This document shows, piece by piece, positions 13,253 through 28,568 of a DNA stretch of 64,000 bases. The stretch is from an uncultured Candidatus Saccharibacteria bacterium (GTDB lineage Bacteria > Patescibacteriota > Minisyncoccia > Phycocordibacterales > UBA2163), in contig CAZVGL010000001.1 of NCBI GenBank assembly GCA_964626705.1, positions 87,643 to 151,642 on the forward strand. The letters are read 5' to 3'. Each line of letters opens with the position of its first letter. Within the stretch, counting starts at the first letter, position 1. The notes beneath the pieces were generated by a model that did not search any database, was not told where the DNA came from, and saw nothing but the letters and a program-made list of their open reading frames with translations. Both the position numbers and the translations under genes were made by a program.

Positions 13253-13598
13253 TTTGAATCATACCAGTTTCGAAGGTCTCACAAAGGAGTCTTCCATAGA
13301 AGATGTGGAAAAGATGCTTGATAAAGAGATAAAAGTCATTAATAACAAAAAAATCAATTTAAATAAAGAAAATATTCTTGTAAACCTTAAAAAGGCAAAT
13401 AAGAGTGTCGCTGAAGCAAGAAGTATCCTTTCTGGCGCAATATCAGAGCGTTACAAGATAGCGCTAGAATATGTAAAAATTTTAGCTGAAGAATTTCCTA
13501 CTGTTTCAAAAAAGAGAAAGGTGGAGATATTGGAAACTGTAAGAAAGGCAAAAATGACAGAGGAATTCTTAGCGGAAAGGTTTAAGGTTAAAGAATAG
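13185..13598 (+). CDS. Secreted small helical protein of unknown function (paralog B; same signal peptide, unrelated mature part)
   Basis: The first 23 aa are identical to paralog A. It is followed by the terminator at 13611-13647. Confidence 0.6.
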   Translation: MKYLFTLLIVAITFVFSTQNSFALNHTSFEGLTKESSIEDVEKMLDKEIKVINNKKINLNKENILVNLKKANKSVAEARSILSGAISERYKIALEYVKILAEEFPTVSKKRKVEILETVRKAKMTEEFLAERFKVKE

Positions 13599-13610
13599 TT
13601 TGAGTTTTAA

Positions 13611-13647
13611 AGGACTTGATACCGCGTATGTATCAAGCCTTTTTTAT
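13611..13647 (+). terminator. Rho-independent terminator
   Basis: AGGACTTGATACCGCGTATGTATCAAGCCT followed by TTTTTT. Confidence 0.7.
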
Positions 13648-13889
13648 TTGCACCCAAAAAGGGTACTGCAATCTGCAAATCAATCACTACGTTCTTGAGC
13701 AAACCGTTGCACCCAAAGGGCACGCCGGTTTGTAGCTGATCACTCCGTTCTCAGACAAACCGTTGCACCCAAAGGGCACGCCGGTTTGTGGCCAATCGCT
13801 TTGCTCTTGGACAAACCGTTGCACCTAAAGGGCACTGCAATCTACAAATCAATCGCTATCGCTCTTGAGTAGATTGGTTGCATTTTTTT
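13648..13889 (+). repeat. Tandem array of four structured repeat units of 56-59 bp (order B-A-A-B) plus a terminal TTGCAT, immediately upstream of rpsL
   Basis: The units start at 13648, 13707, 13763 and 13819. Each begins TTGCACC(C/T)AAAGGG(C/T)AC and ends ...AAACCG / GATTGG. The A units carry the inverted repeat CGGTTTGT-N21-ACAAACCG. The final TTGCAT at 13878 can serve as a -35 for rpsL. Confidence 0.85.
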
Positions 13890-13948
13890 GGCTTTGTAGT
13901 ATATTGTATCTACTCGCTAAGCGGGTTTTTTTATAAAAATACAAAGAA

Positions 13949-14356
13949 ATGTCCACAATTAACCAATTGGTAAAAAAGAAGAGAAAAAAAGAAGCCACAA
14001 AGTCAAAGACTGTGGCGCTTTCACGTGGTTTTAATACATTGAAGAATAAGCCGGTTTTCTATAATTCACCATTTAAAAGAGGTGTATGTATAAAGGTAAT
14101 GACAAAGACTCCAAAGAAACCTAACTCTGCTGTGCGAAAGGTGGCAAGAGTGCGACTTACAAACGGTATGGAGGTTACTGCATATATTCCAGGAATGGGG
14201 CATAATTTGCAGGAGCACTCAGTAGTACTTCTGCGTGGTGGACGTGTAAAAGATATTGGACTACGATACACTGTGGTACGAGGAAAGCTTGACGCAGGTG
14301 GAGTAGAGAAAAGAAATAGAGGAAGAAGTAAGTACGGTACTAAAAAACCTAAATAA
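13949..14356 (+). CDS. rpsL: 30S ribosomal protein uS12
   Basis: [33 protein letters not shown]; length 135 aa. Confidence 0.96.
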
Positions 14357-14365
14357 ATTTAAATA

Positions 14366-14836
14366 ATGAGAAGAAAAATTAAAAGAAGAAAAGAGGTTGA
14401 TGGAGACTCAGTATATGGGTCTGTTAAACTTACTAAATTTATCAACTACGTAATGCAAGACGGTAAGAAAAACACTGCGCGTAAAGTAGTTTACGATACT
14501 CTTGAAGAGATAAAAACTAAAGAAAAGACAGATAAACCGGAGGTTCTTTTTGAAACAGCTCTTGATAATGTGGGGCCAAACATGGAAGTACGTTCACGAA
14601 GAGTAGGAGGTGCTAACTATCAGGTTCCTAGAGAAGTGCGTCCAGAAAGAAGGATGTTGCTTTCAATGCGATGGATAATAGGTGCAGCACAAGCAAAGAA
14701 AGGATCTCCTATGTATAAAAGGCTTGCAGAAGAGCTTATACTTGCTAGTAAAAACGAAGGTGAAGCATTCAAGAAGAAAGAAAACGTACACAAAATGGCA
14801 GAGTCTAACAAAGCCTTTGCACACTTTGCTTGGTAA
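14366..14836 (+). CDS. rpsG: 30S ribosomal protein uS7
   Basis: S7 family; length 156 aa; follows rpsL. Confidence 0.95.
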   Translation: MRRKIKRRKEVDGDSVYGSVKLTKFINYVMQDGKKNTARKVVYDTLEEIKTKEKTDKPEVLFETALDNVGPNMEVRSRRVGGANYQVPREVRPERRMLLSMRWIIGAAQAKKGSPMYKRLAEELILASKNEGEAFKKKENVHKMAESNKAFAHFAW

Positions 14837-14893
14837 TAAAATGTCCGGGGGCATTTTGTTCATGTTTTAATATTTTTAATTTAGATAACGTTT

Positions 14894-17038
14894 ATGGAAA
14901 GAGATTATCCACTAGAGAGAGTAAGAAACACAGGTATCATCGCACACATTGATGCCGGTAAAACTACGACAACAGAACGTGTGCTGTTTTATACTGGAGT
15001 ATCACACAAGATAGGAGAAGTGCACGAAGGAGAAGCTACTATGGACTGGATGGAGCAAGAGCAAGAGCGAGGTATTACTATTACTTCTGCTGCTACGACA
15101 GCTTTTTGGACTCCAACATATGCAGATAAAGGAGATGACAGTAATAAATATCGTTTTAATATTATCGACACACCAGGTCACGTGGACTTTACAGTGGAAG
15201 TAGAACGGTCTCTAAAGGTGCTTGATGGTGGAGTGGTGGTGTTTGATGGAGTAGCGGGAGTAGAACCACAGTCTGAAACTGTATGGCGACAGGCAGACAA
15301 ATACTCTGTACCAAGAATTTGTTTTATAAATAAAATAGATAGAACTGGTGCATCTTTCGAAAGGTCATACCAGACTATCTTAGACAGACTTACAAAAAAC
15401 GCAGTACGAATGCAGATACCTATAGGAGAAGAAGAAAATATGGAAGGTGTTGTGGACTTGCTTAAGATGAAAGCCTACTACTTTGAAGGTCAGATGGGTA
15501 TGGAAGTAAGAGAAGACGAAGTGCCAGAAAACTTAAAAGCTGAAGCAGAAAAGTTTAGAGGGGAACTTATAGAAAAAGCAGTTGAGAATGATGAAGTTCT
15601 TATGAATGACTATCTAGAAGGAAAAGAGATCCCAGTAGACAGCATAAAAAAAGCTATAAGAAAGGCAACAATTGCGAATCAGTTCGTGCCAGTGTTTACA
15701 GGTACTGCTTTGAAGAATAAAGGGGTACAGCTTGTGCTGGACGCTGTTATCGACTACTTGCCATCACCACTTGATATCCCGGCAGTTAAGGGTATTGATC
15801 CAAAGACAGAAGAAGAGATAGAAAGAAAAGCATCAGATGATGAGCCTTTTGCAGCACTTGCTTTCAAACTCCAGACGGATCCATTTGTAGGACAGCTTAC
15901 TTATTTCCGTGTGTATTCAGGTACGCTTGAAGCTGGTTCTTATGTTTACAATACAACAACAGGTAATAAAGAAAGAGTGGGACGAATCTTGCGTATGCAT
16001 GCCAACTCTCGTGAAGAAGTAAAGAAGGTTTATGCGGGAGAGATAGCGGCGGCTGTAGGACTTAAAGACACAAAGACCTCAGATACCTTGTCTGACGAGA
16101 CTAATCAAATAATATTAGATAGGATAGAGTTCCCAGAGCCCGTGGTAAACCTAAAGATAGAACCAAAGACAAAAGCCGACCAAGAGAAAATGGGTATCGC
16201 TCTTAAAAAACTTTCAGATGAAGATCCTACATTTAGAATATCTACAGATACCGAGACAATGGAAACTATTATTGCAGGTATGGGTGAGCTTCACTTGGAT
16301 ATTCTAGTAGACAGGATGAAAAGAGAGTTTAATGTAGAAGCAAATATCGGTAAGCCACAAGTAGCATATAAAGAAACTATTCAGAAAGAAGCAGAAGCAG
16401 AAGTAAAATACATAAAGCAGTCAGGTGGTCGCGGACAGTATGGTCATGTGAAGATTAAGATCAAGCCGCTTGAAGCTATAGAAGAAGATGCAAAGATACC
16501 TAAGAATGTTACAAGAGAAGAGGGGTATGAGTTTATAAACAGTATTAAAGGTGGAGTTATTCCTATGGAATACATACCTGCTGTTTCTAAGGGTGTTAAA
16601 GAAGGTATGCAAAGAGGTATTGTGGCGGGATATAAGCTTGTAGATATATCAGTAGACCTATTTGATGGTTCTTTCCATGATGTAGACTCATCTGAGATCG
16701 CTTTCAAGATCGCAGGGTCACAAGCGTTCCAGCAAGCAGCTGCAAAAGCAAAGCCTGTACTACTTGAACCTATTATGAAAGTAGAAGTGGTAACTCCAGA
16801 GCAGTTCATGGGAGACGTAACAGGTAACCTAAGTTCAAAACGTGGACAAGTAGAAAGTATGGAAGATAGGGGGATGCTAAAGGTGGTAAATGCTAAAGTA
16901 CCACTTTCAGAGATGTTTGGTTACACTACAACACTCCGCTCAATGACAGAAGGACGAGCATCGTCAACTATGGAGTTTGACCACTATGAAGTAGTGCCAC
17001 AAAATGTAGCAGAAGAGATCAAAGAAGCGAGAGGGTAA
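14894..17038 (+). CDS. fusA: Elongation factor G
   Basis: [21 protein letters not shown] and NKIDR motifs; length 714 aa. Confidence 0.97.
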
Positions 17039-17066
17039 TATAATATAAAAAATGAAAATGATAAAA

Positions 17067-17105
17067 GGGAGCTAGGCACAAATGTGCTTAGCTCCCTTGT
17101 TGGTT
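17067..17105. terminator. Bidirectional terminator between fusA and the permease gene
   Basis: GGGAGCTAGGCACAAATGTGCTTAGCTCCC forms a 13/14-bp stem. Confidence 0.7.
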
Positions 17106-17122
17106 TAAAAAACAAATTAAAA

Positions 17123-18577
17123 TTAATATTTTGACAAGAATAACAATAAAGCAATACTCCCAGCGCAACTTATTATAATGAAGGGTATATACGGTAAATG
17201 TGTTCTAAACCTATATACTCCTTTACTTATACTCATTACTGCTACTCCTGCCACTGATCCGATTGGTAATAAATTACATCCTATCCCAGTAGAGAGAGCA
17301 AATAGAAGCCATTGTAATAGATTCATGTCCAGTTTATCTATGTTTAGTACGGCATATACTACTGGCACACTCCCAAATAGGGCAGAAAATGCACCCATTG
17401 AGATATTTACCGCAGTGTGGCTATACGAATCGTACAAGTTACCAACTACAGTTTCGAAGAAACCTATATACTCTAGACCACCTATCATAGGAAGAACGCC
17501 ACAAATAAACAGAAGAGCATCAAACTCTATTCTCTTTATTCGTCTCGAGACTATATTATCTTCTTCATCATTTTCATCATCGTCGGCAACTTCTTCTTTG
17601 CATTTTATTAACTTCATCATGTTTGGGATACCGCAAATAAAATGAAGAGCGTTGAAGTCTACTTCTTTACTTATGCTTTCCTCTTTAGATTTCCCATTTC
17701 GTCTCTTGTCTTTCATAAAGAACGATTTGGCTAAATATGTTAGACCACATAACATACCCAGATACGGAGGAAGGTGGAAGAAATGATGAAAACATACCCC
17801 TGTTCCTATTGTAAGAAGGAAGCATATCATTGCTCTATAAGCACCAGGTTTCATTTTGCGCACATTTAGTGATTCTTGACTCCCATTTCCTGGGCAACCT
17901 TTTGGGACAAACCAAACGGTGAGCATTGTGAATATAATCCAACAGACAATAGCGGGTGCGGCTAATGATTTTACAAATTCTGCAGTAGGTATTTTGTCTG
18001 CAACCCACAACATTAGAAGGGTGATATCTCCAAAAGGACTCCAAGCACCACCAGCATTAGATGCCAGTATAATACCAACACTCGTGGGTATTAGAAACTT
18101 TATGTTTTTTCTCTCAACTGTAAAAGCGACATTCGCCATAAGCATAGCGCTTGTCAGATTGTCCAAAACAGGAGACATACAAAACGTTAAAAACCCTGTC
18201 ATAACAAATAGCCATCTGTAACTACGCTGTTTCTTTTTTAGTCGGTCACTTAGATTATCGAAAACACCTAAATAAGTTAAGGTGTTAACATATATCATGG
18301 CGACCATAAGGAAGAAGAATAGCTCTCCTATGCTGGCTGTCATCTTAATTCTAAACCACTCATTGATTTCAGAATGATTTATAAACCCGTGTACTCCTAT
18401 ACAAAGCCAGATAATACCGGACGCAGACATTACTGGTATAAACTTATTAAGACTTATCGTCTTTTCAAGTATAACCAGAATGAATGCTGTCATTGCTATT
18501 CCTAATATGAAATAGCTCAGCATATGGTTCTCTAGCCATATACTACTGTTGATTAAATCGTTGTTGTGTATTTCCAT
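17123..18577 (-). CDS. ArsB/NhaD/CitMHS-superfamily ion transporter with a large central cytoplasmic loop
   Basis: About 12 TM helices and an acidic central loop (..EEVADDDENDEEDN..). The RBS AAAGGGGG lies 5 nt before the ATG at 18577; the ORF track begins 2 codons earlier. Confidence 0.5.
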   Translation of the reverse strand: MEIHNNDLINSSIWLENHMLSYFILGIAMTAFILVILEKTISLNKFIPVMSASGIIWLCIGVHGFINHSEINEWFRIKMTASIGELFFFLMVAMIYVNTLTYLGVFDNLSDRLKKKQRSYRWLFVMTGFLTFCMSPVLDNLTSAMLMANVAFTVERKNIKFLIPTSVGIILASNAGGAWSPFGDITLLMLWVADKIPTAEFVKSLAAPAIVCWIIFTMLTVWFVPKGCPGNGSQESLNVRKMKPGAYRAMICFLLTIGTGVCFHHFFHLPPYLGMLCGLTYLAKSFFMKDKRRNGKSKEESISKEVDFNALHFICGIPNMMKLIKCKEEVADDDENDEEDNIVSRRIKRIEFDALLFICGVLPMIGGLEYIGFFETVVGNLYDSYSHTAVNISMGAFSALFGSVPVVYAVLNIDKLDMNLLQWLLFALSTGIGCNLLPIGSVAGVAVMSISKGVYRFRTHLPYIPFIIISCAGSIALLLFLSKY

Positions 18578-18725
18578 ACACACCCCCTTTCAAAGAAGTT
18601 AAAGTGTAATTTTTAATTTAATTTTCGATTCTCAAGGTGCTGCAAACCTGCATAGTTGTAACATATTCAGCCCCTTGGCGCAATTATTCTGAACATGTGA
18701 ACGTCGCACGTCCAACTACAGGTAC

Positions 18726-18757
18726 TATGATTAACCCAAGTGGTACAGTTAACTGTA
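18726..18757 (+). promoter_or_regulatory. Perfect 14-bp stem-loop in a divergent intergenic region
   Basis: CCCAAGTGGTACAG-TTAA-CTGTACCACTTGGG. There is no convergent gene for it to terminate. Confidence 0.4.
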
Positions 18758-18875
18758 CCACTTGGGACTTTCTGTTTAATTTGCTATTTTTTGAGATTTT
18801 CGTAGACTTGTGAGTAGTAAGTTGTTTTTATCAAGATCTAATTTTTTTAAGAAATTTAGAGAAGGAGGTTTTAAG

Positions 18876-19076
18876 ATGGATGACGCAGGAATGAGCAAAG
18901 GACTTATGTGGTTTCATGCAATCGTTCCAGCACTATTATTTTTTGGCTGTATAGGAGTTGTTGTATGGGCTTCTTTTGAAAGAGGTAAGAAAAAAGAATT
19001 AAAAAAAGAAAATAACAAATTAAAGAATGATGTAAACAGGCTTGAACGAGGGATATTAAGAAGTGATCACTGTTAA
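18876..19076 (+). CDS. Small single-TM protein with a C-terminal coiled coil (hypothetical)
   Basis: The RBS GAAGGAGG lies 7 nt upstream of the ATG at 18876. TM helix AIVPALLFFGCIGVVVWASF. The ORF-track start at 18810 is an upstream extension without an RBS. Confidence 0.5.
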   Translation: MDDAGMSKGLMWFHAIVPALLFFGCIGVVVWASFERGKKKELKKENNKLKNDVNRLERGILRSDHC

Positions 19077-19100
19077 TTTTTTTTGAAACGGAGATGACCA

Positions 19101-19373
19101 ATGATAGAACTACTTGATCATATGTATTCTGCAAATGATGAGCAAATGACGTATTTGGCAAAAAGGATAATAGAGGGATCTGAAGTAACAATTGGGTATA
19201 AAGAAGAAAAGGCTTGGCTTGATAAATATACTGAGAGACAGCTAGGGATACCTTTTGACTTTGCGGAGCTGTATTTGAAACTAGGCATAATCGAGTGTCA
19301 TTCTGGCAATAATGATACCTGGGAACGGCATTATCTATTTCCTTATGAAAGGGCTTCAAGAATCACTTTTTAG
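19101..19373 (+). CDS. Hypothetical protein (90 aa)
   Basis: The RBS GGAG lies 7 nt upstream. It has no recognisable family and is adjacent to the 18876 gene. Confidence 0.4.
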   Translation: MIELLDHMYSANDEQMTYLAKRIIEGSEVTIGYKEEKAWLDKYTERQLGIPFDFAELYLKLGIIECHSGNNDTWERHYLFPYERASRITF

Positions 19374-19574
19374 TTGCGCTTTATCAAAAAGTAGGGCAGA
19401 GGACTCACTAGTACGAGTTTTCTGCCTATTTTTATATTATATCTTGCGCTTTTATTTATGTTCTGGTACTATATATCACATATCGCCTTGTGCGCTTTTT
19501 GTTATGCGCGCGAGCTTTGTCGCTAAAAAGGGGGGATATTGGTAAATTTATTAATTATTAATACATAAATTATT

Positions 19575-20768
19575 ATGGCAGAAGCTTTTGACAGGTCAAA
19601 ACCTCACGTAAACGTAGGTACAATTGGCCACGTTGACCACGGAAAAACAACTTTGACTGCAGCTATCTTGCACGTTCTACAACTTGCAGGAATGACAGTT
19701 AAGATGAAAAAGGTTGACGAAATCGACGGTGCTCCAGAAGAAAAAGCACGAGGTATTACTATCTCACTTTCTCACAACGAGTACGCAACAGACGCTCGGC
19801 ATTATGCGCACATTGATGCACCTGGTCACGCCGACTATATTAAAAACATGATCACAGGAGCCGCACAGATGGACGGCGCTATTCTTGTGGTTGCAGCATC
19901 TGACGGTGTAATGCCTCAGACAAGAGAGCACATCTTGCTTGCAAAGCAGGTTGGTGTGCCAAAGATTATCGTATTTCTTAACAAAGTTGATCAGGTTGAC
20001 GACAATGACCTAGTAGACCTTGTAGAAGAAGAAGTTCGTGAACTTCTTACACAATACGAGTTTGATGGAGAAAACGCTCCAGTTATTCGCGGTTCAGGAC
20101 TTAAAGCTCTTGACGCAACATCAATGGATGACGAATGGGCAAAGAAAGTTATGGAACTTGCAACAGCTCTTGACGAATACATCCCACTTCCAGTAAGAGA
20201 GATGGATAAACCATTCCTAATGCCTATTGAGGACATCTTCTCAATCGAAGGACGAGGTGCGGTTGTAACAGGAAGGATCGAAAGAGGTGTAGTGAAGGTA
20301 GGTGAAGAAATCGAGATAGTTGGTATTAAAGAAACATCAAAAACTACAGTTACAGGTATCGAGATGTTTAATAAGCAGCTTGAAGAAGGTCAGGCTGGAG
20401 ACAATGCTGGTATCTTGGTTCGTGGTCTTAAAAAAGAAGAGATTCACAGAGGACAAGTGCTTGCAAAACCAGGTTCTGTAACACCTCATACTGAGTTTGA
20501 AGCAGAAGCTTACGTTCTTAAAAAAGAAGAAGGAGGACGACACACACCATTCTTTACAGGTTATAAGCCACAGTTCTACATCAGAACAACTGATGTAACA
20601 GGAGAGGCAACTTTACCTGAAGGAACAGAGATGGTAATGCCTGGAGACACAACAACATTCACAGTGAAGCTGGTATCACCAGTTGCCCTTGAAGAAAAGC
20701 AAAAGTTTGCTATTCGAGAAGGAGGTAAGACTGTCGGTGCCGGAGTTGTGACAAAGATCATTGCGTAA
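19575..20768 (+). CDS. tuf: Elongation factor Tu
   Basis: [21 protein letters not shown] and NKVD motifs; length 397 aa. Confidence 0.97.
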
Positions 20769-20776
20769 ACTTAAAT

Positions 20777-21148
20777 ATGACAACAGCGACAACTAAAACT
20801 AAAAAAGCGCCTGCTAAGAAAAAAGCGTCAAAAAAAGACGAAGCGCCTAAGATCCGAATCCGTGTTCGTGCATACGAGCATAAGATTTTGGACAGTTCTA
20901 TAAAACAAATTATAGACACAGTGCTTCGTTTTGATGCAAAGATAGTAGGACCTATACCGCTTCCAACAGAGATCAAGAAGTATACTGTAAACCGTGCATC
21001 ATTTGTTTACAAAGATGCTCGTGAGCAGTTTGAGATGAGAGTTCATAAAAGGGTTATAGATATCCTTAGCCCATCTCCAAAGATCATAGAAGCGCTCACA
21101 AACATGAGCTTACCGTCTGGAGTCAATATCGACATAAAGATGGTTTAA
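20777..21148 (+). CDS. rpsJ: 30S ribosomal protein uS10 with a ~25-aa Lys/Ala-rich N-terminal extension
   Basis: IRIRVRAYEHKILDSS...VNRASFVYKDAREQFEMRVHKR is the S10 core. It is preceded by TTATTKTKKAPAKKKASKKDEAPK. Confidence 0.93.
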   Translation: MTTATTKTKKAPAKKKASKKDEAPKIRIRVRAYEHKILDSSIKQIIDTVLRFDAKIVGPIPLPTEIKKYTVNRASFVYKDAREQFEMRVHKRVIDILSPSPKIIEALTNMSLPSGVNIDIKMV

Positions 21149-21160
21149 ACTAAGATACAA

Positions 21161-21193
21161 AAACCCCGCAGGCTCAGCCTGCGGGGTTTTTGA
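21161..21193 (+). terminator. Strong rho-independent terminator directly after rpsJ
   Basis: CCCCGCAGGC-TCAG-CCTGCGGGG followed by TTTTTG. Confidence 0.85.
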
Positions 21194-21287
21194 TTTGCTT
21201 TACAAAATGATCTGACTATGGCAAACTATCATCTGGTAGTAAAACGTTGTACTCTATTTTAATCAATCTTTGTAAAGAGGAGGCTCA

Positions 21288-21464
21288 ATGTCAGTATCAA
21301 AAAAGACAAAGAAGAAACCTATTGAGAAAGAAGAATTTTTCATCGGTGTGTGTAATGAATGCGGAAACGAAACCGTAAAAGTTTCAAGCCTTGTTATAAA
21401 ACATTGGACGGATAAATGTAAGATCGGCAGTTGTGATGGGAGATACACTTACATCGAGGTTTGA
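21288..21464 (+). CDS. Unannotated 58-aa Cys4 zinc-ribbon-like protein (the ORF track missed it because it is under 60 aa)
   Basis: A perfect RBS AAGAGGAGG lies 6 nt before the ATG. Translation: MSVSKKTKKKPIEKEEFFIGVCNECGNETVKVSSLVIKHWTDKCKIGSCDGRYTYIEV (CxxC...CxxxxC). The minus-strand ORF at 21263-21448 is its antisense shadow. Confidence 0.6.
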   Translation: MSVSKKTKKKPIEKEEFFIGVCNECGNETVKVSSLVIKHWTDKCKIGSCDGRYTYIEV

Positions 21465-21561
21465 TATCTAATCAGTAAAAAAAGTTTATAATCAGTTACG
21501 CTCGCATACCCTGCATCATAGTGGGTTTGCGAGCATTTTTTTGTATAAAATCACCAAAATC

Positions 21562-21762
21562 TTGCACCCAAAGGGCACGCCGGTTTGTGGCTGATCACTC
21601 CGTTCTCAGACAAACCGTTGCACCCAAAGGGTACTTGCAATTTGCTAGGCCAATCGCTACGCTTTTGGGCAAATTGGTTGCACGACTCGGATTAGACAGC
21701 CTCCATGCACGCCGGTTTGTGGCTGATCACTCCGTTCTCAGACAAACCGTTGCATTTTATTG
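21562..21762 (+). repeat. Second tandem array of the TTGCAC structured-repeat family (units of 56, 60 and 72 bp plus a terminal TTGCAT) immediately upstream of rplC
   Basis: Unit 1 (21562-21617) differs from unit 2 of the rpsL array at one position. Unit 3 carries a 25-nt insert after the head. The array ends in TTGCAT, which forms a -35. Confidence 0.85.
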
Positions 21763-21778
21763 AGTATTATAGTACTAT
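21750..21778 (+). promoter_or_regulatory. Predicted promoter TTGCAT-N17-TACTAT for the rplC sub-operon
   Basis: The hexamers and spacing fit. The -35 is the terminal repeat head. Confidence 0.5.
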
Positions 21779-21793
21779 ACAATCACTTATTTA

Positions 21794-21815
21794 GAAGCTC
21801 GTAGCTTCTTTTTTG
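21794..21815 (+). promoter_or_regulatory. Leader hairpin GAAGCTCGTAGCTTC plus U-run, 8 nt before the rplC ATG
   Basis: The same motif recurs before rpsS (24576-24598). It looks like an attenuator or r-protein operator. Confidence 0.45.
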
Positions 21816-21822
21816 TTGAAAT

Positions 21823-22419
21823 ATGGCTAAGTTTATCATAGGCACAAAACAAAATATGACTCAGATCTTCGATACGGAAGGGCGAGTTCACCCAGCAACT
21901 GTTATAAATGCAGAGCCTACTTCAGTGACTCAGATAAAGAACAAAGAAAAAGACGGCTATGAAGCTGTGCAGGTGGGTTATGGAGAAAGAAAAGAAAAGA
22001 ACATAAACAATGCTCAGAAAACAAAAGGAAACTTTGAAGGTTTTAAAGAATTCATCGGTGCTGGGGAACTTAAAGTTGGCGACAAGATCGACATCTCAAG
22101 TTTTGCAGAAGGAGAAGAAATAGAGATCTCTTCTATTTCAAAAGGTAAAGGTTTTCAAGGTGTAGTAAAGCGTCATGGTTTTCACGGAGGACGACGTTCA
22201 CATGGTCAGAAGCATTCGGAAAGAGAGCCAGGTTCTATTGGTGCAACAGGTCCACAAAGAGTATTTAAAGGAAAAAAGATGGGTGGCCGTATGGGAAGTG
22301 ATAGAGTGACTTTGAAAAAAGTTGAAATACTTCAGATCGACAAAGACAATAATCAGCTTGTAGTAAGAGGTGCGGTACCTGGAAGAAGAGGGACTGTAAT
22401 AGAAATAAGCGCGCAATAA
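21823..22419 (+). CDS. rplC: 50S ribosomal protein uL3
   Basis: L3 family; length 198 aa. Confidence 0.95.
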   Translation: MAKFIIGTKQNMTQIFDTEGRVHPATVINAEPTSVTQIKNKEKDGYEAVQVGYGERKEKNINNAQKTKGNFEGFKEFIGAGELKVGDKIDISSFAEGEEIEISSISKGKGFQGVVKRHGFHGGRRSHGQKHSEREPGSIGATGPQRVFKGKKMGGRMGSDRVTLKKVEILQIDKDNNQLVVRGAVPGRRGTVIEISAQ

Positions 22420-22431
22420 TTTTAATATTAT

Positions 22432-23154
22432 ATGGAAACTAAAGTATACAATTTAGAAGGAAAAGAAACTGGAAAGGTATCATTACCCGAAAGTGTTTTT
22501 GGTTTACCATGGAATGATGACCTAGTGCATCAGGTGGTTGTATCTCAGCAGAGTAATTTGCGAACTCCTATAGCTCATACTAAAGATAGAAGTGAAGTAC
22601 GAGGTGGTGGTAGAAAACCATGGCGTCAGAAAGGTACTGGGCAATCTCGACATGGGTCAAGAAGATCTCCTATATGGCGTGGAGGAGGTATTACTTTTGG
22701 TCCTCGTAACGATAAGGATTATGGTAAGAAGATCAACAAGAAGATGAAAGCAAAAGCGCTTCTCACAATACTTTCACGAAAGTTCAAAGACGGTGAAATA
22801 ATATTCGTAGATTCACTTTCATTTGCAGAACCAAAGACGGCTAAAGCAAAAGAAGTTGTCACTAATCTTTCAAAGATAGCCGGGTTTGATACACTTGCTA
22901 CAAAGCGAAAAAACGCAGCATTGTTTGCACTTGGTACTAAAGACAAAAATACAGAAAAGAGTTTTCAGAACTTTGGAAGTATTTCAGTTGATGAAGCTCG
23001 TAACCTAGACCCACTTGATATTCTTACATACAAATATCTAATAGTTTCAGAGCCTAAAAATATAGTTAATTTCTTAGAAAGTAAATTACCAAAAAAAGAA
23101 GTGGCTAAAAAGGAAGTTAAAGCTGAAGTAAAGAAAGAGGTAAATAAAAAATAA
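22432..23154 (+). CDS. rplD: 50S ribosomal protein uL4 with a Lys-rich C-terminal tail
   Basis: L4 family; the tail reads ..KKEVAKKEVKAEVKKEVNKK. Confidence 0.94.
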   Translation: METKVYNLEGKETGKVSLPESVFGLPWNDDLVHQVVVSQQSNLRTPIAHTKDRSEVRGGGRKPWRQKGTGQSRHGSRRSPIWRGGGITFGPRNDKDYGKKINKKMKAKALLTILSRKFKDGEIIFVDSLSFAEPKTAKAKEVVTNLSKIAGFDTLATKRKNAALFALGTKDKNTEKSFQNFGSISVDEARNLDPLDILTYKYLIVSEPKNIVNFLESKLPKKEVAKKEVKAEVKKEVNKK

Positions 23155-23155
23155 T

Positions 23156-23566
23156 ATGGCATTGTTTGGATCAAAAAAGAAAAAAGAGGTTGCAGATAAA
23201 CCTAAAAAGGAGGTTAAAGCAGTGAAAAAAGCTGTAGCTAAAGCTCCTGCAGTTGCTGTGAAGCCACAAGCTAAAGGTGCTGATGGTATGTTTGCTCATA
23301 TTTTAGTACAGCCACGTATTACTGAGAAAGCTACTGAAAAGGCAGAGACTGGCGTATATGTATTTGAAGTTGCAACAAATGCTACAAAGAAAGAAATAGG
23401 AAGTGCTGTAAAGCATTATTACAATGTGACACCTATTAAAGTAAATATTGTAAAGATCCCTTCAAAGAAGATAACTTCAAGAACTACTCGTAAAACAGGT
23501 ACAAGACCTGGAGGTAAGAAAGCATATGTCTTTCTTAAAGAGGGGGATAAAATAGAGATTGTATAA
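23156..23566 (+). CDS. rplW: 50S ribosomal protein uL23 with a ~40-aa Lys/Ala-rich N-terminal extension
   Basis: The core AHILVQPRITEKAT..YVFEV is L23. Confidence 0.93.
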   Translation: MALFGSKKKKEVADKPKKEVKAVKKAVAKAPAVAVKPQAKGADGMFAHILVQPRITEKATEKAETGVYVFEVATNATKKEIGSAVKHYYNVTPIKVNIVKIPSKKITSRTTRKTGTRPGGKKAYVFLKEGDKIEIV

Positions 23567-23575
23567 TAAATTTTT

Positions 23576-24418
23576 ATGAAGAAATATAAACCAACAACAC
23601 CAGGAAGACGAGGAATGACAGGTATTTCATATCGAGATATTTTAACTACGTCAAAACCATATAAGCCACTGACTCGTGGTGTTAATCGTTCTGTGGGGCG
23701 AAACAGTGACGGTAGGATAACAACTCGACACAAAGGCGGAGGGCATAAAAGAGTGTGGAGAGAAATAAGTTTTAAATACGACAAACGAGAAGTTGTAGGG
23801 ACTTTGACAACTATTGAATATGATCCAAACAGATCAGGATTCATATCACTTGTATCATACAAAGATGGAGAAAAGAGATATGTACTTCTTCCACAGACAA
23901 TGAAGGTTGGCGACACTATAGTAGCTTCAGCTGAAGCTAAAGTGAAAGTAGGTAATTCATTACCACTTAATAAGATCCCTGTAGGTACTTTTGTATACAA
24001 TGTAGAGATCAAGCCAGACAGTGGTGCAAAGATCGCACGTTCAGCTGGTAACTATGCAGAGGTTATTGCAAACGACGGTGGCTTCGTACACTTGAAGATG
24101 CCATCATCTGAGATACGAAAAGTAAGTGAAAAAGCTTGGGCATCTGTTGGTGAAGTAAGTAATGACGAACATAGGCTTGTGAACATCGGTAAGGCAGGGC
24201 GAGCACGATGGATGGGGAGACGGCCGACAGTGCGTGGTTCTGCTATGAACCCAGTAGACCACCCACATGGTGGTGGAGAAGGGCATGCAGGCCGTGGACG
24301 ACGACGAGCTATCTCTAAATGGGGTAAGCCGACAGGTAAAGGACAGAAGTCACGAAAACCTAAGAAATATTCAAATCAACTTATCGTTAAAAGAAGAAAA
24401 GTTGGAAAGAAAAGATAA
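23576..24418 (+). CDS. rplB: 50S ribosomal protein uL2
   Basis: L2 family; length 280 aa; HPHGGGEG motif. Confidence 0.96.
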   Translation: MKKYKPTTPGRRGMTGISYRDILTTSKPYKPLTRGVNRSVGRNSDGRITTRHKGGGHKRVWREISFKYDKREVVGTLTTIEYDPNRSGFISLVSYKDGEKRYVLLPQTMKVGDTIVASAEAKVKVGNSLPLNKIPVGTFVYNVEIKPDSGAKIARSAGNYAEVIANDGGFVHLKMPSSEIRKVSEKAWASVGEVSNDEHRLVNIGKAGRARWMGRRPTVRGSAMNPVDHPHGGGEGHAGRGRRRAISKWGKPTGKGQKSRKPKKYSNQLIVKRRKVGKKR

Positions 24419-24427
24419 TATTAAAAA

Positions 24428-24464
24428 CAAAAACACCGAGGTTTAACCTCGGTGTTTTTGTTTG
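24428..24464 (+). terminator. Rho-independent terminator after rplB
   Basis: AAACACCGAGG-TTTAA-CCTCGGTGTTT followed by TTG. Confidence 0.85.
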
Positions 24465-24541
24465 TTACGTAGCATGTTACGTAACAAAAAGCTGTTAAAT
24501 AGCTTATCTTATGTTGAAATGAGGGATTTAGCTGTTTTTTG

Positions 24542-24570
24542 TTGACATTGCGCTGTAATTTGGTAATATT
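24542..24570 (+). promoter_or_regulatory. Predicted promoter TTGACA-N16-TAATAT for the rpsS sub-operon
   Basis: It has a consensus -35 and a near-consensus -10. Confidence 0.55.
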
Positions 24571-24575
24571 CTGTA

Positions 24576-24598
24576 AAGCTCGTAGGAGCTTGTTTTTA
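24576..24598 (+). promoter_or_regulatory. Leader hairpin AAGCTCGTAGGAGCTT plus U-run before rpsS
   Basis: The sequence and position match the rplC leader hairpin. Confidence 0.45.
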
Positions 24599-24607
24599 TA
24601 GTTAAAT

Positions 24608-24952
24608 ATGTCACGATCACTCAAAAAAGGTCCATATGTAGATGAAAAGCTTCTCAAGAAGGTTGAGGGCAAGAAACCCGACGAAGTCAAAGGGCCTATT
24701 AAGACGTGGGCACGACGAAGTCAGATATCACCTGAGATGGTGGGCTTTACATTTGGTGTTCATAACGGAAAGGAGCATATAGAAGTGTTTGTTTCTGAAG
24801 AAATGGTGGGACATAGACTTGGAGAGTTTTCAGCTTCAAAGAAGTTCTTGCGACATGGAGGTAAAATACAAAAAGAACTCGATCAGAAAAAGAAAGAATC
24901 AGAAATAACAGCAGCTAAAGCAGCTAAAGAAGCAGGAGACTCTAAGAAATAA
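24608..24952 (+). CDS. rpsS: 30S ribosomal protein uS19 with a Lys/Ala-rich C-terminal extension
   Basis: The N-terminus [20 protein letters not shown] is S19. Confidence 0.94.
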
Positions 24953-24957
24953 TTATC

Positions 24958-25392
24958 ATGAAAGCACTTCTTAAAAACTATAGACAAGCACCACGTAAAG
25001 TTCGCCTTATTGCAAACCTTGTTCGTGGTAAGAAAGTTGATAGAGCTCTTATACTTCTATCTGCTACAGATAAAAAGGCAACACTACCTTTTAAGAAGTT
25101 AGTAGAGTCTGCAATAGCAAATGCAAAAAGTTCAGGTGCTAAATCTGAAGATTTGATAGTAAAAGAAATACAGGTAAACGAAGGTATAGTTTTCAAAAGA
25201 TACAAGCCACGAGCGCGCGGTAGGGCTTCAGCAATACGAAAAAAGACAAGTCACATCTCTGTTATTTTAGAAGAAGGAAAGAAGAAGGTTGAAAAAGCAA
25301 AAGTTGAGACTAAAAAGACAGAGGTTAAAAAGGTTGCAAAGAAGGCCGAATCTGTAAAGAAATCAGCAGTTAAGAAAACAGTTAAAAAATAA
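24958..25392 (+). CDS. rplV: 50S ribosomal protein uL22 with a Lys-rich C-terminal tail
   Basis: L22 family; length 144 aa. Confidence 0.93.
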   Translation: MKALLKNYRQAPRKVRLIANLVRGKKVDRALILLSATDKKATLPFKKLVESAIANAKSSGAKSEDLIVKEIQVNEGIVFKRYKPRARGRASAIRKKTSHISVILEEGKKKVEKAKVETKKTEVKKVAKKAESVKKSAVKKTVKK

Positions 25393-25393
25393 T

Positions 25394-26062
25394 ATGACAC
25401 ATACAGTACATCCATATGCACATAGACTAGGTATTTTAAGAGATTGGAAATCTCGATGGTTTTCTGCTGATCCAAAACGATATCGTGAATTTATAAAATG
25501 CGACACTACTATAAGACAATTTTTACAAAAGAGACTGCGAGGATTTTATATAAGTTCTATTGAGATAGAGCGAGGAGAAAAGAAATTAAGAATTATTATA
25601 AAGACATCACGTCCTGGTATGATCATCGGACGAAGTGGGGACGGTGCTACAAAACTTAAAAACGACATTGAAAAAGTTATCGCAAAGCTTAGCCTTACAG
25701 ACAAACAGGATATAAAACTTGATATAGAAGAAGTTAAGAACCCTGAATCCAATGCTGCTATAGTAGGGCAGATGGTAGCTGAAGCTCTTGAGAAGAGGAT
25801 GACATTTAGACGTGTGCTAAAACAAACTGTAGAGAAGGTTATGGCAAATCGTGATGTGGTAGGAGTGAGGATCGTCCTTGGAGGGCGCTTGGGAGGAGCT
25901 GAGATGGCACGAAAGGAACAAATCAAGAAAGGGCGTATCCCACTTCAGACTTTTAGAGCGGATATTGATTTTACGCGAGAAAAAGCATATCTTCCATATG
26001 GAGTGATAGGTATCAAGGTATGGATATATAAAGGAGATGTTTTTGCTGATGGTAAGAAATAA
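25394..26062 (+). CDS. rpsC: 30S ribosomal protein uS3
   Basis: Has a KH domain; length 222 aa. Confidence 0.95.
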   Translation: MTHTVHPYAHRLGILRDWKSRWFSADPKRYREFIKCDTTIRQFLQKRLRGFYISSIEIERGEKKLRIIIKTSRPGMIIGRSGDGATKLKNDIEKVIAKLSLTDKQDIKLDIEEVKNPESNAAIVGQMVAEALEKRMTFRRVLKQTVEKVMANRDVVGVRIVLGGRLGGAEMARKEQIKKGRIPLQTFRADIDFTREKAYLPYGVIGIKVWIYKGDVFADGKK

Positions 26063-26072
26063 TAATTAAAAT

Positions 26073-26492
26073 ATGTTATTCCCAAAGAAAGTAAAATATA
26101 GGAAGTGGCAAACAAGCCGCAAGAATCCTAAAAAGATCAGTCCAGCAACACGTGGCAACACTCTTGCTTTTGGCTCTTTTGGCCTGAAGTCTATGAAGGC
26201 TGTTCGCATAAGGTCAAACCAGATCGAAGCTGCACGAAGAGTGATCTCAAGAGCTATGGGAAAAAACGGAAGAATATGGACACGTGTATTCCCAGACCGA
26301 CCTTATACTGCAAAAGCAGCTGAGGTAGGTATGGGTAAAGGAAAGGGTGACCTGCAAGGGTATGAGTTCCCAGTACTTCCAGGGCATATACTTTTTGAGA
26401 TAGACGGTGTAGATGAAGCTATTGCACGTGAAGCGCTTAGGAAGGCAACTGCAAAGCTACCGCTTACAGCTAAAGTAATAAGTAGAGTTTAA
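26073..26492 (+). CDS. rplP: 50S ribosomal protein uL16
   Basis: L16 family; length 139 aa. Confidence 0.95.
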   Translation: MLFPKKVKYRKWQTSRKNPKKISPATRGNTLAFGSFGLKSMKAVRIRSNQIEAARRVISRAMGKNGRIWTRVFPDRPYTAKAAEVGMGKGKGDLQGYEFPVLPGHILFEIDGVDEAIAREALRKATAKLPLTAKVISRV

Positions 26493-26500
26493 ATATTAAT

Positions 26501-26692
26501 ATGGCAAAGAAAATAGATTTAAAAAATAAGAGTGATAAAGATTTACAGAAAGATCTCGCAGACAAACGAGAGAATGTTCGTACATTTCGATTTGGTGTTG
26601 CAGGAAGTAAGGTGCGTAATGTAAAAGAAGCGAAGAATATAAAGAGAGGTATTGCGCAGATCCTAACTGAAATAAGTTCAAGAAATAAATAA
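26501..26692 (+). CDS. rpmC: 50S ribosomal protein uL29
   Basis: L29 family; length 63 aa. Confidence 0.92.
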   Translation: MAKKIDLKNKSDKDLQKDLADKRENVRTFRFGVAGSKVRNVKEAKNIKRGIAQILTEISSRNK

Positions 26693-26693
26693 T

Positions 26694-26954
26694 ATGGAAA
26701 ATAAGACAGAACAAAAAAATATTGTAAAAAAACAAAAAACACTTTCTGGTGTGGTTGTTTCAGACAAGATGACAGACACAGCTGTCGTTGCTGTAGAGAG
26801 GTATGTAAAACACCCTAAGTATGGTAAGTTCATAAAGCGAGTAAAAAGGTATAAAGCTCACGATAAGGACAATCAGCATAAAGTGGGTGAAAAGGTAAGT
26901 ATAGAACAAACACGACCTATCTCTAAAGACAAGACTTTTAAGATAATAAATTAA
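26694..26954 (+). CDS. rpsQ: 30S ribosomal protein uS17
   Basis: S17 family; length 86 aa. Confidence 0.93.
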   Translation: MENKTEQKNIVKKQKTLSGVVVSDKMTDTAVVAVERYVKHPKYGKFIKRVKRYKAHDKDNQHKVGEKVSIEQTRPISKDKTFKIIN

Positions 26955-26955
26955 T

Positions 26956-27327
26956 ATGATACAGCCACAAACATTAGTAAAAGTGACAGACAACTCCGGA
27001 GCGAAGATCGGGCGAGTTTTCAAAGTGCTCGGAGGTTCAAAAAAACGATATGCACGAATAGGTGATATCGTGGTTTTGTCTGTACAGACTGCAGAGCCTA
27101 GAAAGATGGTTAAAAAGAAGGAAGTACTAAGGGCTGTTGTGGTAAGACAAAAACAGCCTTTCCGAAGAAAAGATGGTTCATATATTTCATTTGATGAGAA
27201 CTCTGTTGTGATAATAGATAAAGAAAAGAAGGAACCAAAAGCAGGACGAGTCTTCGGACCTATCCCTAGAGAGATAGGTGAGCTTGGATATCAGAAGATA
27301 GTGTCACTTGCACCTGAAGTAGTATAA
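26956..27327 (+). CDS. rplN: 50S ribosomal protein uL14
   Basis: MIQPQTLVKVTDNSGAK..; length 123 aa. Confidence 0.96.
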   Translation: MIQPQTLVKVTDNSGAKIGRVFKVLGGSKKRYARIGDIVVLSVQTAEPRKMVKKKEVLRAVVVRQKQPFRRKDGSYISFDENSVVIIDKEKKEPKAGRVFGPIPREIGELGYQKIVSLAPEVV

Positions 27328-27332
27328 ATATT

Positions 27333-27548
27333 ATGAAAATAAAAAAAGACGACAAAGTAAAAATAATCGCTGGGAAAGACAAAGGTAAAACTGGAAAGGT
27401 TTTACGTGCTATTCCTGACAATGATCAGATAATAGTGGAGGGTGTTAATATAAAAAAACGACATCAGAAGCCTACAAAAAGTAATCAGAAAGGGCAGATA
27501 GTAGACAAGACAACACCAATACATGTTTCAAATGCTAAGAAGATATAA
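27333..27548 (+). CDS. rplX: 50S ribosomal protein uL24 (short, KOW domain)
   Basis: KVKIIAGKDKGKTGKV is the KOW motif; length 71 aa. Confidence 0.9.
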   Translation: MKIKKDDKVKIIAGKDKGKTGKVLRAIPDNDQIIVEGVNIKKRHQKPTKSNQKGQIVDKTTPIHVSNAKKI

Positions 27549-27550
27549 AT

Positions 27551-28099
27551 ATGATTCATATAAAAGATAGACAAAAGAATACGTTTGATAATTTGAAAGA
27601 GACTTTCAAATATACAAATGTGATGCAGACACCAAAGATAGAAAAGGTGGTTATTTCAGCTGGTATTGGTTCTGTAAAAGATAAAAACAAAATCAAGACT
27701 ATAAAAGATAGACTCGCACGTATAACAGGGCAGAAAGAAGCAGCAAGAGCTGCAAAGAAATCTATAGCTACATTTAAGACACGAGAGGGTGACATACTAG
27801 GGTATCAGGTTACACTACGAGGTCAGAGAATGTATGACTTCTTAGATAGGCTTATTCATATCGCAATACCACGAACAAGAGACTTTAGAGGGCTCGACAT
27901 AAAAGGTATAGATGAGATGGGCAACTTCACTATGGGTATTAAAGAACACACGATCTTCCCAGAAACTTCAGATGAAGATCTAAAAGATGTGTTTGGATTT
28001 GCTATAACTTTTGTTACAACAGCTAAAAATAAAGAAGAAGCAAAAGAGTATTTCAAGAGTTTAGGTTTCCCATTTAAAAAGGAAGAAGAAAAAGCTTAA
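27551..28099 (+). CDS. rplE: 50S ribosomal protein uL5
   Basis: L5 family; length 182 aa. Confidence 0.95.
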   Translation: MIHIKDRQKNTFDNLKETFKYTNVMQTPKIEKVVISAGIGSVKDKNKIKTIKDRLARITGQKEAARAAKKSIATFKTREGDILGYQVTLRGQRMYDFLDRLIHIAIPRTRDFRGLDIKGIDEMGNFTMGIKEHTIFPETSDEDLKDVFGFAITFVTTAKNKEEAKEYFKSLGFPFKKEEEKA

Positions 28100-28109
28100 A
28101 AATCAAAAT

Positions 28110-28152
28110 AAAACAACCCCGTCGCTTGCAAGCGACGGGGTTGTTTTATTTT
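28110..28152 (+). terminator. Strong terminator after rplE; the ribosomal cluster ends here
   Basis: AAAACAACCCCGTCGCTTGCAAGCGACGGGGTTGTTTT. Confidence 0.85.
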
Positions 28153-28238
28153 GATTTTGTGGTATTCTAATCAACAGTAAATTAGCCCAATTCATTATTG
28201 TAGTATTTTTAGTCTTTGTATAATATGGAGGTGTGAAG

Positions 28239-28445
28239 ATGCAGACTACAACGAAAAAGGTTTTAGTTCATTTTGTCGAAGGAGAAATGGTAAATTGTTA
28301 CGATACATCGTGTGATGGCTGTAATGGACCGGATTGTTTTTTGAATGAGGGCCTGATTGCTGATAGCGACCTTACACGTAAAGATCCTGCATTTTGTTAT
28401 GCGGGCAATTCCGTGAATTTTTCAGAACTACTAAAGCCAGCTTAG
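28239..28445 (+). CDS. Small Cys-rich protein or peptide (68 aa) of unknown function
   Basis: The RBS GGAGG lies 7 nt before the ATG at 28239. Six Cys residues are present: NCYDTSCDGCNGPDCF...FCYAG. Confidence 0.45.
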   Translation: MQTTTKKVLVHFVEGEMVNCYDTSCDGCNGPDCFLNEGLIADSDLTRKDPAFCYAGNSVNFSELLKPA

Positions 28446-28568
28446 GTATAGGTAAAGACGTATAGATAAAATAGCCCGATTTTTCTCATTACGAGAGAGA
28501 TTGGGCTATTCTCTTATCTAACGACTTTTTGGGAATTCTGTGGTTATATAACAATATAGAATAGAAAT

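Follow-up and report, generated by a model that had tools for sequence, protein, structure and literature searches.

The stretch of DNA analysed here, called the window below, comprises 64,000 nucleotides (nt) of contig CAZVGL010000001.1 from an uncultured bacterium, and in it the operons headed by the ribosomal-protein (r-protein) genes rplC, rpsS and rpsL all begin, behind their promoters, with a short RNA hairpin directly followed by a run of uridines (U-tract). Judging from the same leaders in related genomes, it is the hairpin with the U-tract immediately behind it that appears to be the selected unit, because the two are kept together through insertions and even through replacement of the hairpin, and the module occurs clade-wide, on most translation-gene operons of Paceibacteria-type bacteria. 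Tentatively, and with slightly less than even confidence, we interpret the unit as a leaky intrinsic terminator or pause site, sensitive to a factor or to the elongation rate and shared by the translation operons. The features concerned are listed here by position in the window, with promoter start sites predicted throughout from the position of the -10 box:

21750-21755, + strand: rplC promoter, -35 box TTGCAT, furnished by the end of the last unit of a 56-nt repeat
21773-21778, + strand: rplC promoter, -10 box TACTAT, after a 17-nt spacer; start predicted near A21785
21793-21809, + strand: rplC leader hairpin (A)GAAGCT-CGT-AGCTTC(T), 6-7 base pairs (bp), -7.1 kcal/mol
21809-21818, + strand: rplC U-tract TTTTTTGTTG, directly 3' of the stem
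24542-24569, + strand: rpsS promoter, TTGACA (24542-24547), 16-nt spacer, TG-extended TAATAT (24564-24569)
24576-24591, + strand: rpsS leader hairpin AAGCTC-GTAG-GAGCTT, -8.3 kcal/mol, 6 nt past the -10 box, at about +1 by prediction
24592-24599, + strand: rpsS U-tract GTTTTTAT, which with the stem-terminal TT reads TTGTTT, matching TTNTTT
13878-13905, + strand: rpsL promoter, TTGCAT, 16-nt spacer, TATATT, 6 nt before the stem
13912-13932, + strand: rpsL leader, hairpin ACTCGC-TAA-GCGGGT (13912-13926) and T7 to 13932, -6.2 kcal/mol

An earlier, sequence-only reading of the window had placed a hairpin and U-run before both rplC and rpsS and an analogous one before rpsL. All three are there and are picked up by a scan for terminator-like sequences, and those of rplC and rpsS are conserved in relatives. 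The arms of the rplC stem, GAAGCT (21794-21799) and AGCTTC (21803-21808), enclose the loop CGT, the pair A21793-U21809 brings the stem to 7 bp, and T6 (21809-21814), followed by G at 21815, ends 8 nt before the ATG at 21823. The rpsS arms, AAGCTC (24576-24581) and GAGCTT (24586-24591), are followed by GTTTTTA to 24598 and by the ATG at 24608, and the rpsL ATG stands at 13949. From the -10 box to the stem there are 15 nt in rplC and 6 nt in both rpsS and rpsL. Single-sequence fold z-scores of the three hairpins are modest (-1.9 to -2.7), and the evidence beyond chance comes mainly from relatives, less from the window alone. Of the conserved leader motif that the same reading had proposed, the hairpin/U-tract units proved conserved but the 10-mer common to the two leaders did not: AAGCTCGTAG is found within the 64-kb window in the rplC and rpsS leaders only and is not conserved in relatives, so that its identity in the two would be a coincidence or a recent conversion.

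Patescibacteria loci from genomes (23) and metagenomes (80) were compared, and are referred to by L numbers where they need to be told apart. A TTGAC...TGnTAnnAT promoter precedes rpsS in 89 of 95 relatives' loci, and a hairpin starts 0-11 nt past its -10 box in 73 of the 95, with at least four T in the next 8 nt in 62 of these. Under strict criteria, which demand 5 bp or more, two G-C pairs or more and a T-rich tail, hairpin and T-tract lie within 11 nt of the rpsS -10 box in 54 of 81 non-redundant relatives, as against 4.6±2.1, and at most 11, in dinucleotide shuffles. Absence of the motif from close relatives, which the sequence-only reading had named as speaking against a regulatory element, was looked for, and the motif was found to be kept. 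The rpsS stems are mostly AGCUC/GAGCU, within a family AAGCUC/GRGCUU, with loops of 3-8 nt, and distant loci carry unrelated stems at the same place (AACGCC/GGCGTT, TTGCCG/CGGCAA, GTCCCGC/GCGGGAT, TGAGCC/GGCTCA). In a MAFFT alignment of 51 rpsS leaders, 86.5% of the cells are paired, as opposed to 19-54% once the 3' partner has been shifted by 1-3 columns, and 14 cells are changed on both sides of the pair, a number reached by none of 500 shuffles; these 51 leaders were pre-selected for containing the hairpin, and it is the shuffle test that gives evidence free of bias. About 11% of the cells are G-U pairs, which fits an RNA read from the + strand, and covariation is modest because the stem core is conserved in sequence.

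The hairpin and its tail also stay together when their surroundings are disrupted. In L163, the window-type promoter of rpsS, the hairpin AAGCTC-gcaa-GGGCTT and the tail are all kept, and an insertion of 165 nt lies after the U-tract and before the ATG. In L166 and L168 an insertion of about 40 nt separates the promoter from the hairpin and U-tract, placing the hairpin about 45 nt from the predicted start, and in L167 and L084 the promoter, hairpin and U-run follow directly after rplB, with no other terminator there. The insertion itself (L166:7490-7530, L168:7165-7205) is hairpin-forming, AACCCUCCUUCAUUUUUCUUAUUGAAAAAUUACGGCGGGG and a variant of it; a small mobile element and an additional regulatory domain are both conceivable.

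The rplC leader shows replacement of one hairpin by another. Its hairpin and U-run are kept, with free loops, in the closest relatives, forming a family GRAGC/GCUUC: GAAGC-acttc-GCTTC followed by TATTTTT in L163 (89% L3 identity), GGAGC-ttctc-GCTTC followed by T6 in L166 (81%), and GAAGC-tcctctt-GCTTC followed by T6 in L168 (77%). Five other relatives (L161, L162, L164, L165 and L169, 86-92%) have before rplC a hairpin of the rpsL type, ACTYGC-loop-GCGRGT, followed by T5. Alignment shows the rplC cassettes and the window's rpsL cassette to be homologous, with TTGCATTT...TATAGTAC...ACT... followed by TTTTTGTTGAA; TTTTT(G/A)TTGAA is unchanged across all seven aligned cassettes, TTGCAT-N16/17-TA...T is kept in L161, L163, L164, L166, L168 and at the window's rpsL, and TTGCA...TAGTAnAnT before rpsL is itself conserved in relatives. 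In the lineage of the window the old rpsL-type hairpin has decayed to ACTTATTTAG, and a new and unrelated GAAGC/GCUUC hairpin sits directly against the unchanged U-tract. The rplC leader, taken earlier for a duplicate of the rpsS leader, is thus a copy of the rpsL cassette, its promoter cassette being paralogous to that of rpsL and its rpsL-type hairpin having been replaced.

Directly upstream of both the rpsL and the rplC promoter lies an array of 56-nt tandem repeats (13640-13880 and 21555-21760), whose unit, TTGCACCCAAAGGGCAC-GCCGGTTTGTGGCTGATCACTCCGTTCTCAGACAAACCG, has an internal inverted repeat CGGTTTGT...ACAAACCG and in its last copy provides the -35 TTGCA of the promoter. The repeat is absent from the rest of the window and from all of the 160 relatives' loci checked; an upstream activating array and a mobile repeat are both possibilities. 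Some relatives carry another, longer rplC leader (L002:8046-8145, L018:8209-8308, L154:84-186, L009 at about 8050-8105, L013:4436-4540), composed of a hairpin, a conserved GGACCAAUGG, and CCAUUG overlapping a terminator-like hairpin with a U-run just before the ATG. Its appearance is that of a classical attenuator complete with antiterminator, and it is put forward as a candidate for a new r-protein leader.

Across the leaders the hairpin has fairly constant properties. Its median free energy is -6.85 kcal/mol over 16 nt, compared to -16 kcal/mol for the hairpins after rplB, its basal pairs are A-U or G-U in most rows, and the stem starts at a median of 7 nt after the -10 box (interquartile range 5-9), that is, at about +1 to +3 by prediction. 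When hairpins were chosen without any requirement for T, in the 25 leaders longer than 30 nt, T made up 63% of positions 1-8 after the stem and 31% of positions 13-40. The enrichment is limited to the first 8 or 9 positions, and the start codon lies 5-146 nt away; since T is enriched next to the stem in long leaders, the U-tract goes with the hairpin and not with the start codon. Of 62 tails, 40 contain the motif TTNTTT, where composition alone would give 23.4±3.2, and in 15 the motif begins on the last two bases of the stem (4.9±2.1 expected).

The element had been thought to belong to the two halves of the S10 operon, an idea too narrow for what relatives show, as it is also found before rpsL, tuf and rpsN and, at one locus, rplJ. 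When all Patescibacteria loci were scanned for strong promoters (TTGAC, N14-16, TGnTAnnnT), hairpin and T-tail stood behind 40 of the 64 belonging to rpsS, behind 16 of the 28 belonging to other translation genes (tuf, rpsN, rplC) and behind none of the remaining 28, some of which may be chance matches to the promoter pattern. Fisher's test for translation-gene specificity gives p of about 1e-9 with sequences that are related and thus not phylogenetically independent. The stems of the tuf leaders are of the CGCA/UGCG type, the rpsL leaders have hairpin and U-run in 7 of 8 relatives with unrelated stems, and a leader of similar appearance precedes rplJ in L161. From the 51 rpsS leaders a covariance model (R1) was built, which finds further leaders of rpsS, rpsN, rplC (L015), tuf (L021) and rpsL (L012). 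It also matches ordinary bidirectional terminators, which underlines the terminator-like nature of the unit. As the definition of a family distinct from any hairpin with a U-run R1 was rejected, for it matches these terminators and misses the window's rplC hairpin at E of 5 or less.

The tuf leader of the window (19470-19520) has just a 3-bp hairpin, CGC-cuugu-GCG, ahead of U5-7, and this is kept in L161, L162, L164, L166 and L167; an alternative 9-bp fold, CUUGUGCGC...GCGCGCGAG, would put the U-run in the loop.

The genes and terminators around the leaders are arranged in the window as follows:

13949-17038: rpsL-rpsG-fusA
19575-21148: tuf-rpsJ, with rpsJ 8 nt after tuf
21158-21192: strong bidirectional terminator after rpsJ, dividing tuf-rpsJ from rplC
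between rpsJ and rplC: gap of 675 nt
21823-24418, + strand: sub-operon rplC-rplD-rplW-rplB
21823-22419, + strand: rplC (L3), first gene of rplC-rplD-rplW-rplB; Pfam PF00297 on homologues
24425-24463: strong bidirectional terminator after rplB, -26.6 kcal/mol, fold z-score -7.4
between rplB and rpsS: gap of 189 nt
24608-28099, + strand: sub-operon rpsS...rplE, after which glycosyltransferase genes come next
24608-24952, + strand: rpsS (S19), first gene of rpsS...rplE

The terminator-like scan finds a strong bidirectional terminator after rplE too, and because such terminators already follow rpsJ, rplB and rplE, the leader hairpins are not the terminators of the operons upstream. That the r-protein sub-operons are separately promoted, as the sequence-only reading had it, agrees with the sigma-70-type promoters present before them and with a clade-wide split between rplB and rpsS, the latter with its own promoter: the two genes are never contiguous in the clade (gaps of 61-9699 nt in 58 relatives' loci), compared to a typical distance of about 26 nt in other phyla (56 loci). 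The gap often houses extra genes, such as hicAB toxin-antitoxin pairs (L162, L166) or rplJ-rplL (L161), and in the window the S10 cluster is additionally cut after rpsJ and after rplE. Between rpsJ and rplC the window has a small open reading frame (ORF) of 58 amino acids (21288-21464, + strand), whose product MSVSKKTKKKPIEKEEFFIGVCNECGNE...CKIGSC resembles a zinc ribbon. A strong Shine-Dalgarno sequence, GAGGAGG, among the few in the window, precedes this ORF, which also has its own hairpin and T7 (21500-21543).

The window, with 36% G+C, derives from a Patescibacteria (Paceibacteria-like) genome. No species representative has an L2 protein more than about 70% identical to the one encoded here, the best matches being in Patescibacteria (Kaiser-, Zambryski- and Taylorbacteria, Paceibacterota), and L3 homologues at 77-92% identity carry the labels Pacebacteria or Paceibacteria. 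A Shine-Dalgarno-like motif lies within 20 nt of the start in only 6 of its 62 genes, a typical gene start being A/T-rich with ...AAATAAT just before it. This fits the anti-Shine-Dalgarno loss reported for Parcubacteria, where the motif is frequently absent in a subgroup (PMC9297842).

The hairpin and U-tract are the RNA-level core of a portable cassette, which consists of a strong sigma-70-type promoter, a short hairpin at about 0-9 nt from where transcription is predicted to start (3-4 pairs of GC core on an A-U/G-U base, about -6 to -8 kcal/mol), a U-tract of 8-9 nt directly behind the stem, and an AU-rich start region lacking a Shine-Dalgarno sequence. If our interpretation of the unit is correct, then with RNA polymerase at about +20 to +30 the hairpin would form behind a U-rich RNA-DNA hybrid and a fraction of the polymerases would pause or terminate, making an attenuator that has no antiterminator and whose efficiency would follow the elongation rate or the supply of uridine triphosphate (UTP), NusA/NusG-type factors, or a bound protein. 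A common unit before rpsL, tuf, rplC, rpsS and rpsN could in this way co-ordinate the operons of the translation machinery. A stem near the 5' end would remain on read-through transcripts, where it may also slow 5'-end-dependent decay, and in L084 and L167, with no separate terminator upstream, the unit would also halt read-through from rplB. What speaks for a terminator or pause is that the stem and a U-tract of the length of the hybrid are kept together through insertions and hairpin replacement; as in an intrinsic terminator, the stem-loop is directly followed by a U-tract of 7-9 nt.

Several observations weigh against this interpretation. The hairpins fall short of the strength for efficient release, so that the terminator would be weak or factor-dependent at best, and they are far weaker than the real terminators of the same genomes (after rplB in the window, -26.6 kcal/mol). 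Of 54 leader hairpins, just 2 pass the discriminant of d'Aubenton-Carafa, which was trained on E. coli and sets the leader hairpins poorly apart from those after rplB, for which reason only the contrast in free energy was used. Start sites and termination are both read from sequence. No alternative (antiterminator) structure was found in the leaders and no regulator was identified; nusG, searched for in the window and in the relatives' loci covered by that search, was not found. Seven relatives with a rplB-rpsS gap of 61-92 nt have the promoter but no hairpin, and the tuf leader of the window has just the 3-bp version. To terminate constitutively at the most active promoters would be a waste, and a stem at about +1 is exactly what suits a protective 5' stem-loop.

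This last point leads to the alternative that survives best, possible but distinctly less probable in our estimate, namely that a 5'-proximal stabilising stem-loop has been joined to a U/A-rich unstructured landing zone for the ribosome. Sitting at the extreme 5' end, the hairpin would protect very highly expressed mRNAs from 5'-end-dependent decay (RppH, RNase J, RNase E/Y entry), and the U-rich stretch would serve as start region in an organism with little use of Shine-Dalgarno sequences. Weak 5' stem-loops do suffice for mRNA stability in B. subtilis and E. coli (ompA, aprE, ermC), AU-rich unstructured starts are the norm in the window, and the hairpin, whose stem is predicted to start at the very beginning of the transcript, stays adjacent to the promoter in many long leaders (L001, L100, L118, L131, L160, L163). 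However, known 5' stabilising stem-loops need no adjacent U-tract, and protection leaves unexplained both why a U-tract of 8-9 nt stays with the stem even where the ATG lies 40-146 nt off and the register of TTNTTT. An AU-rich single strand beside a stem would moreover be a good endonuclease target. Position, judged by predicted starts, suits this alternative at rpsS and rpsL of the window but not everywhere: the rplC hairpin, 15 nt past the -10 box in the window, L163, L166 and L168, leaves a single-stranded 5' end of 8-9 nt and yet stands beside its U-tract, and the rpsS hairpin of L166 and L168 is far from the predicted start.

It is rather unlikely, in our judgement, that the leaders are autogenous operators for an r-protein (L4, L2 or another protein of the operon) that would stabilise the hairpin and stimulate termination or block translation, with the site duplicated so that each half of the old S10 operon has one. 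Stems are typical of the gene they precede and more conserved than structure needs (AGCUC/GAGCU at rpsS in most relatives, GRAGC/GCUUC at rplC, CGCA/UGCG at tuf), stems of the AAGCU type recur at rplC, rpsS and rpsN, and L4-mediated (PMC3616713) and L10-mediated (PMC4538822) attenuation are established precedents. On the other hand, neither a second hairpin nor any other sensor domain is present, loops are free, distant relatives have unrelated stems at rpsS, the same architecture serves tuf, and among close relatives the rplC hairpin is either of the rpsL type or of the GAAGC type, which is hard to square with one protein partner. The architecture of the E. coli S10 attenuator, which the sequence-only reading had seen in these leaders, is not borne out: they are 30-40 nt long, with one hairpin, no upstream partner and no antiterminator, and nothing points to L4 or L2 as the regulator. 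An Rfam search gave no match in the whole window at the gathering threshold, no classical autoregulatory leader being found, and at E of 5 or less over 13500-28600 only spurious matches on large terminators, with none at the leaders and no leader family among them.

That the elements are palindromic DNA operators, at which a dimeric transcription factor would bind across the start site, or a by-product with no function, is very improbable: the stems are indeed inverted repeats overlapping +1, but the half-site spacing varies from 3 to 8 nt among close relatives, the G-U pairs would be A-C mismatches on the other strand, the T-tract is strand-specific and always behind the stem, the hairpin is replaced by non-homologous stems, and the enrichment over shuffles is more than 10-fold. 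Three further ideas were set aside. Sequestration of a Shine-Dalgarno sequence was considered for the AGGAG in the rpsS loop, which is 18 nt from the ATG in a genome where such sequences are rare. AGCUCGU occurs in helices 34/35 of 16S rRNA as well, and mimicry of rRNA was dropped, a 7-mer match being expected by chance. A start site inside the terminator stem, with which the unit would stop nothing but read-through from upstream, was rejected as a general rule only (the stems of L084 and L143 are extended), as the conserved 5-bp core begins no earlier than the predicted +1 and pairing of the U-tract with the discriminator upstream is not possible.

Two kinds of repetition were noted besides. 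Tandem heptad repeats, (A/C)GAAGCUA or AAGCUAA, stand immediately before the start codons of r-protein genes, including operon-internal ones (rpsJ, rplW, rplB, rpsC, rplC, rpsS and rplN), as at these places:

L154: 2217-2260, 4685-4760, 5486-5537
L168: 3412-3460, 5496-5540
L162: 5901-5941
L087: 1398-1435
L088: 262-330
L009: 14249-14290

AAGCU precedes rpsC in 20 of 81 loci, with about 0.06 occurrences expected per leader, and the repeats may be a translation-initiation element in genomes that rarely use Shine-Dalgarno sequences. In the window, an identical promoter and leader (about 120 nt) with the first 24 codons is duplicated (11945-12136 and 13065-13256), the codons encoding the signal-peptide-like MKYLFTLLIVAITFVFSTQNSFAL before two different ORFs (12065-12922 and 13185-13598).

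For the question of how bacteria of the Candidate Phyla Radiation, whose genomes are tiny and whose regulators are few, balance the synthesis of r-proteins and elongation factors, the cassette offers a concrete, mutable target on at least five translation operons; if it is an attenuator tuned by a factor or by nucleoside triphosphates, it would provide a minimal global control of the translation apparatus. It is tempting to speculate, although we think it unlikely, that in Paceibacteria one generic, promoter-proximal mini-terminator replaced many protein-specific r-protein leaders, tying the rpsL, tuf, rplC, rpsS, rpsN and rplJ operons to one global signal, which could be the elongation rate of the polymerase, the supply of UTP or the availability of NusA/NusG. 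Paceibacteria depend on nucleotide salvage. Should this be true, the mini-terminator would be a bacterial counterpart of the eukaryotic 5' terminal oligopyrimidine (5'TOP) regulon, spread by copying of whole cassettes. Whatever the mechanism, the leader hairpins turn over under selection for structure, and the S10 cluster, widely used for phylogenomics, is broken clade-specifically between rplB and rpsS.

A search of the literature on leaders in the Candidate Phyla Radiation and Parcubacteria found no description of such elements. Classical autoregulatory r-protein leaders are mostly limited to particular lineages, and the S10 leader of E. coli, upstream of rpsJ, is restricted to Gammaproteobacteria; it has five hairpins, of which HD is required before the terminator hairpin HE, and a translational operator overlapping the S10 start (PMC3616713). 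The leaders described here resemble it in that a terminator-type hairpin and U-run leads an r-protein operon with rplC...rpsS and termination would be the control point. Unlike it, they precede rplC and rpsS, rpsJ directly following tuf, and they have a single hairpin, with neither an HD-type hairpin upstream nor an operator overlapping the S10 start. They are therefore not members of the E. coli L4/S10 leader family.

Closer to them are the leaders of rimP-nusA-infB and rpsL for which Naville and Gautheret (2010, PMC2965389) proposed premature terminators. The conserved part of the former is a terminator alone, with a GGGc...gCCC stem within a long leader, and the latter has premature terminators of many forms, which persist across phyla without common sequence or structure and with predicted antiterminators (PMC2965389). 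Like these, the present leaders have a terminator hairpin and U-stretch with no riboswitch-like sensor, before operons of the transcription/translation machinery. Their stems and genes are other than those of rimP, with no GGGc...gCCC, and they differ from both in the weak stems starting at about +1 to +9, in that no antiterminator is possible, and in one design serving at least five operons. With 5'-terminal stabilisers (ompA, aprE, ermC) they share short stems on highly expressed mRNAs, by prediction mostly at or within a few nt of the 5' end, from which, however, the window's rplC hairpin would be 8-9 nt away.

For B. subtilis, Mandell et al. (2021, PMC8060035) report NusG-dependent terminators and pause sites that carry TTNTTT and whose weak stems end in A-U or G-U pairs. 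The present leaders are like these NusG/NusA-dependent terminators in the weak stem with A-U/G-U ends, the distally interrupted U-tract and a TTNTTT whose first two U lie in the stem base; the B. subtilis sites are experimental and mostly at 3' ends or inside longer leaders, whereas here the resemblance is one of sequence. The unit would work like a premature, factor-dependent terminator, which is an already known kind of element. New, by contrast, are how minimal it is, that it lies where the transcript has only just begun, that it recurs on at least five translation operons within a single clade, and that it has spread as a cassette.

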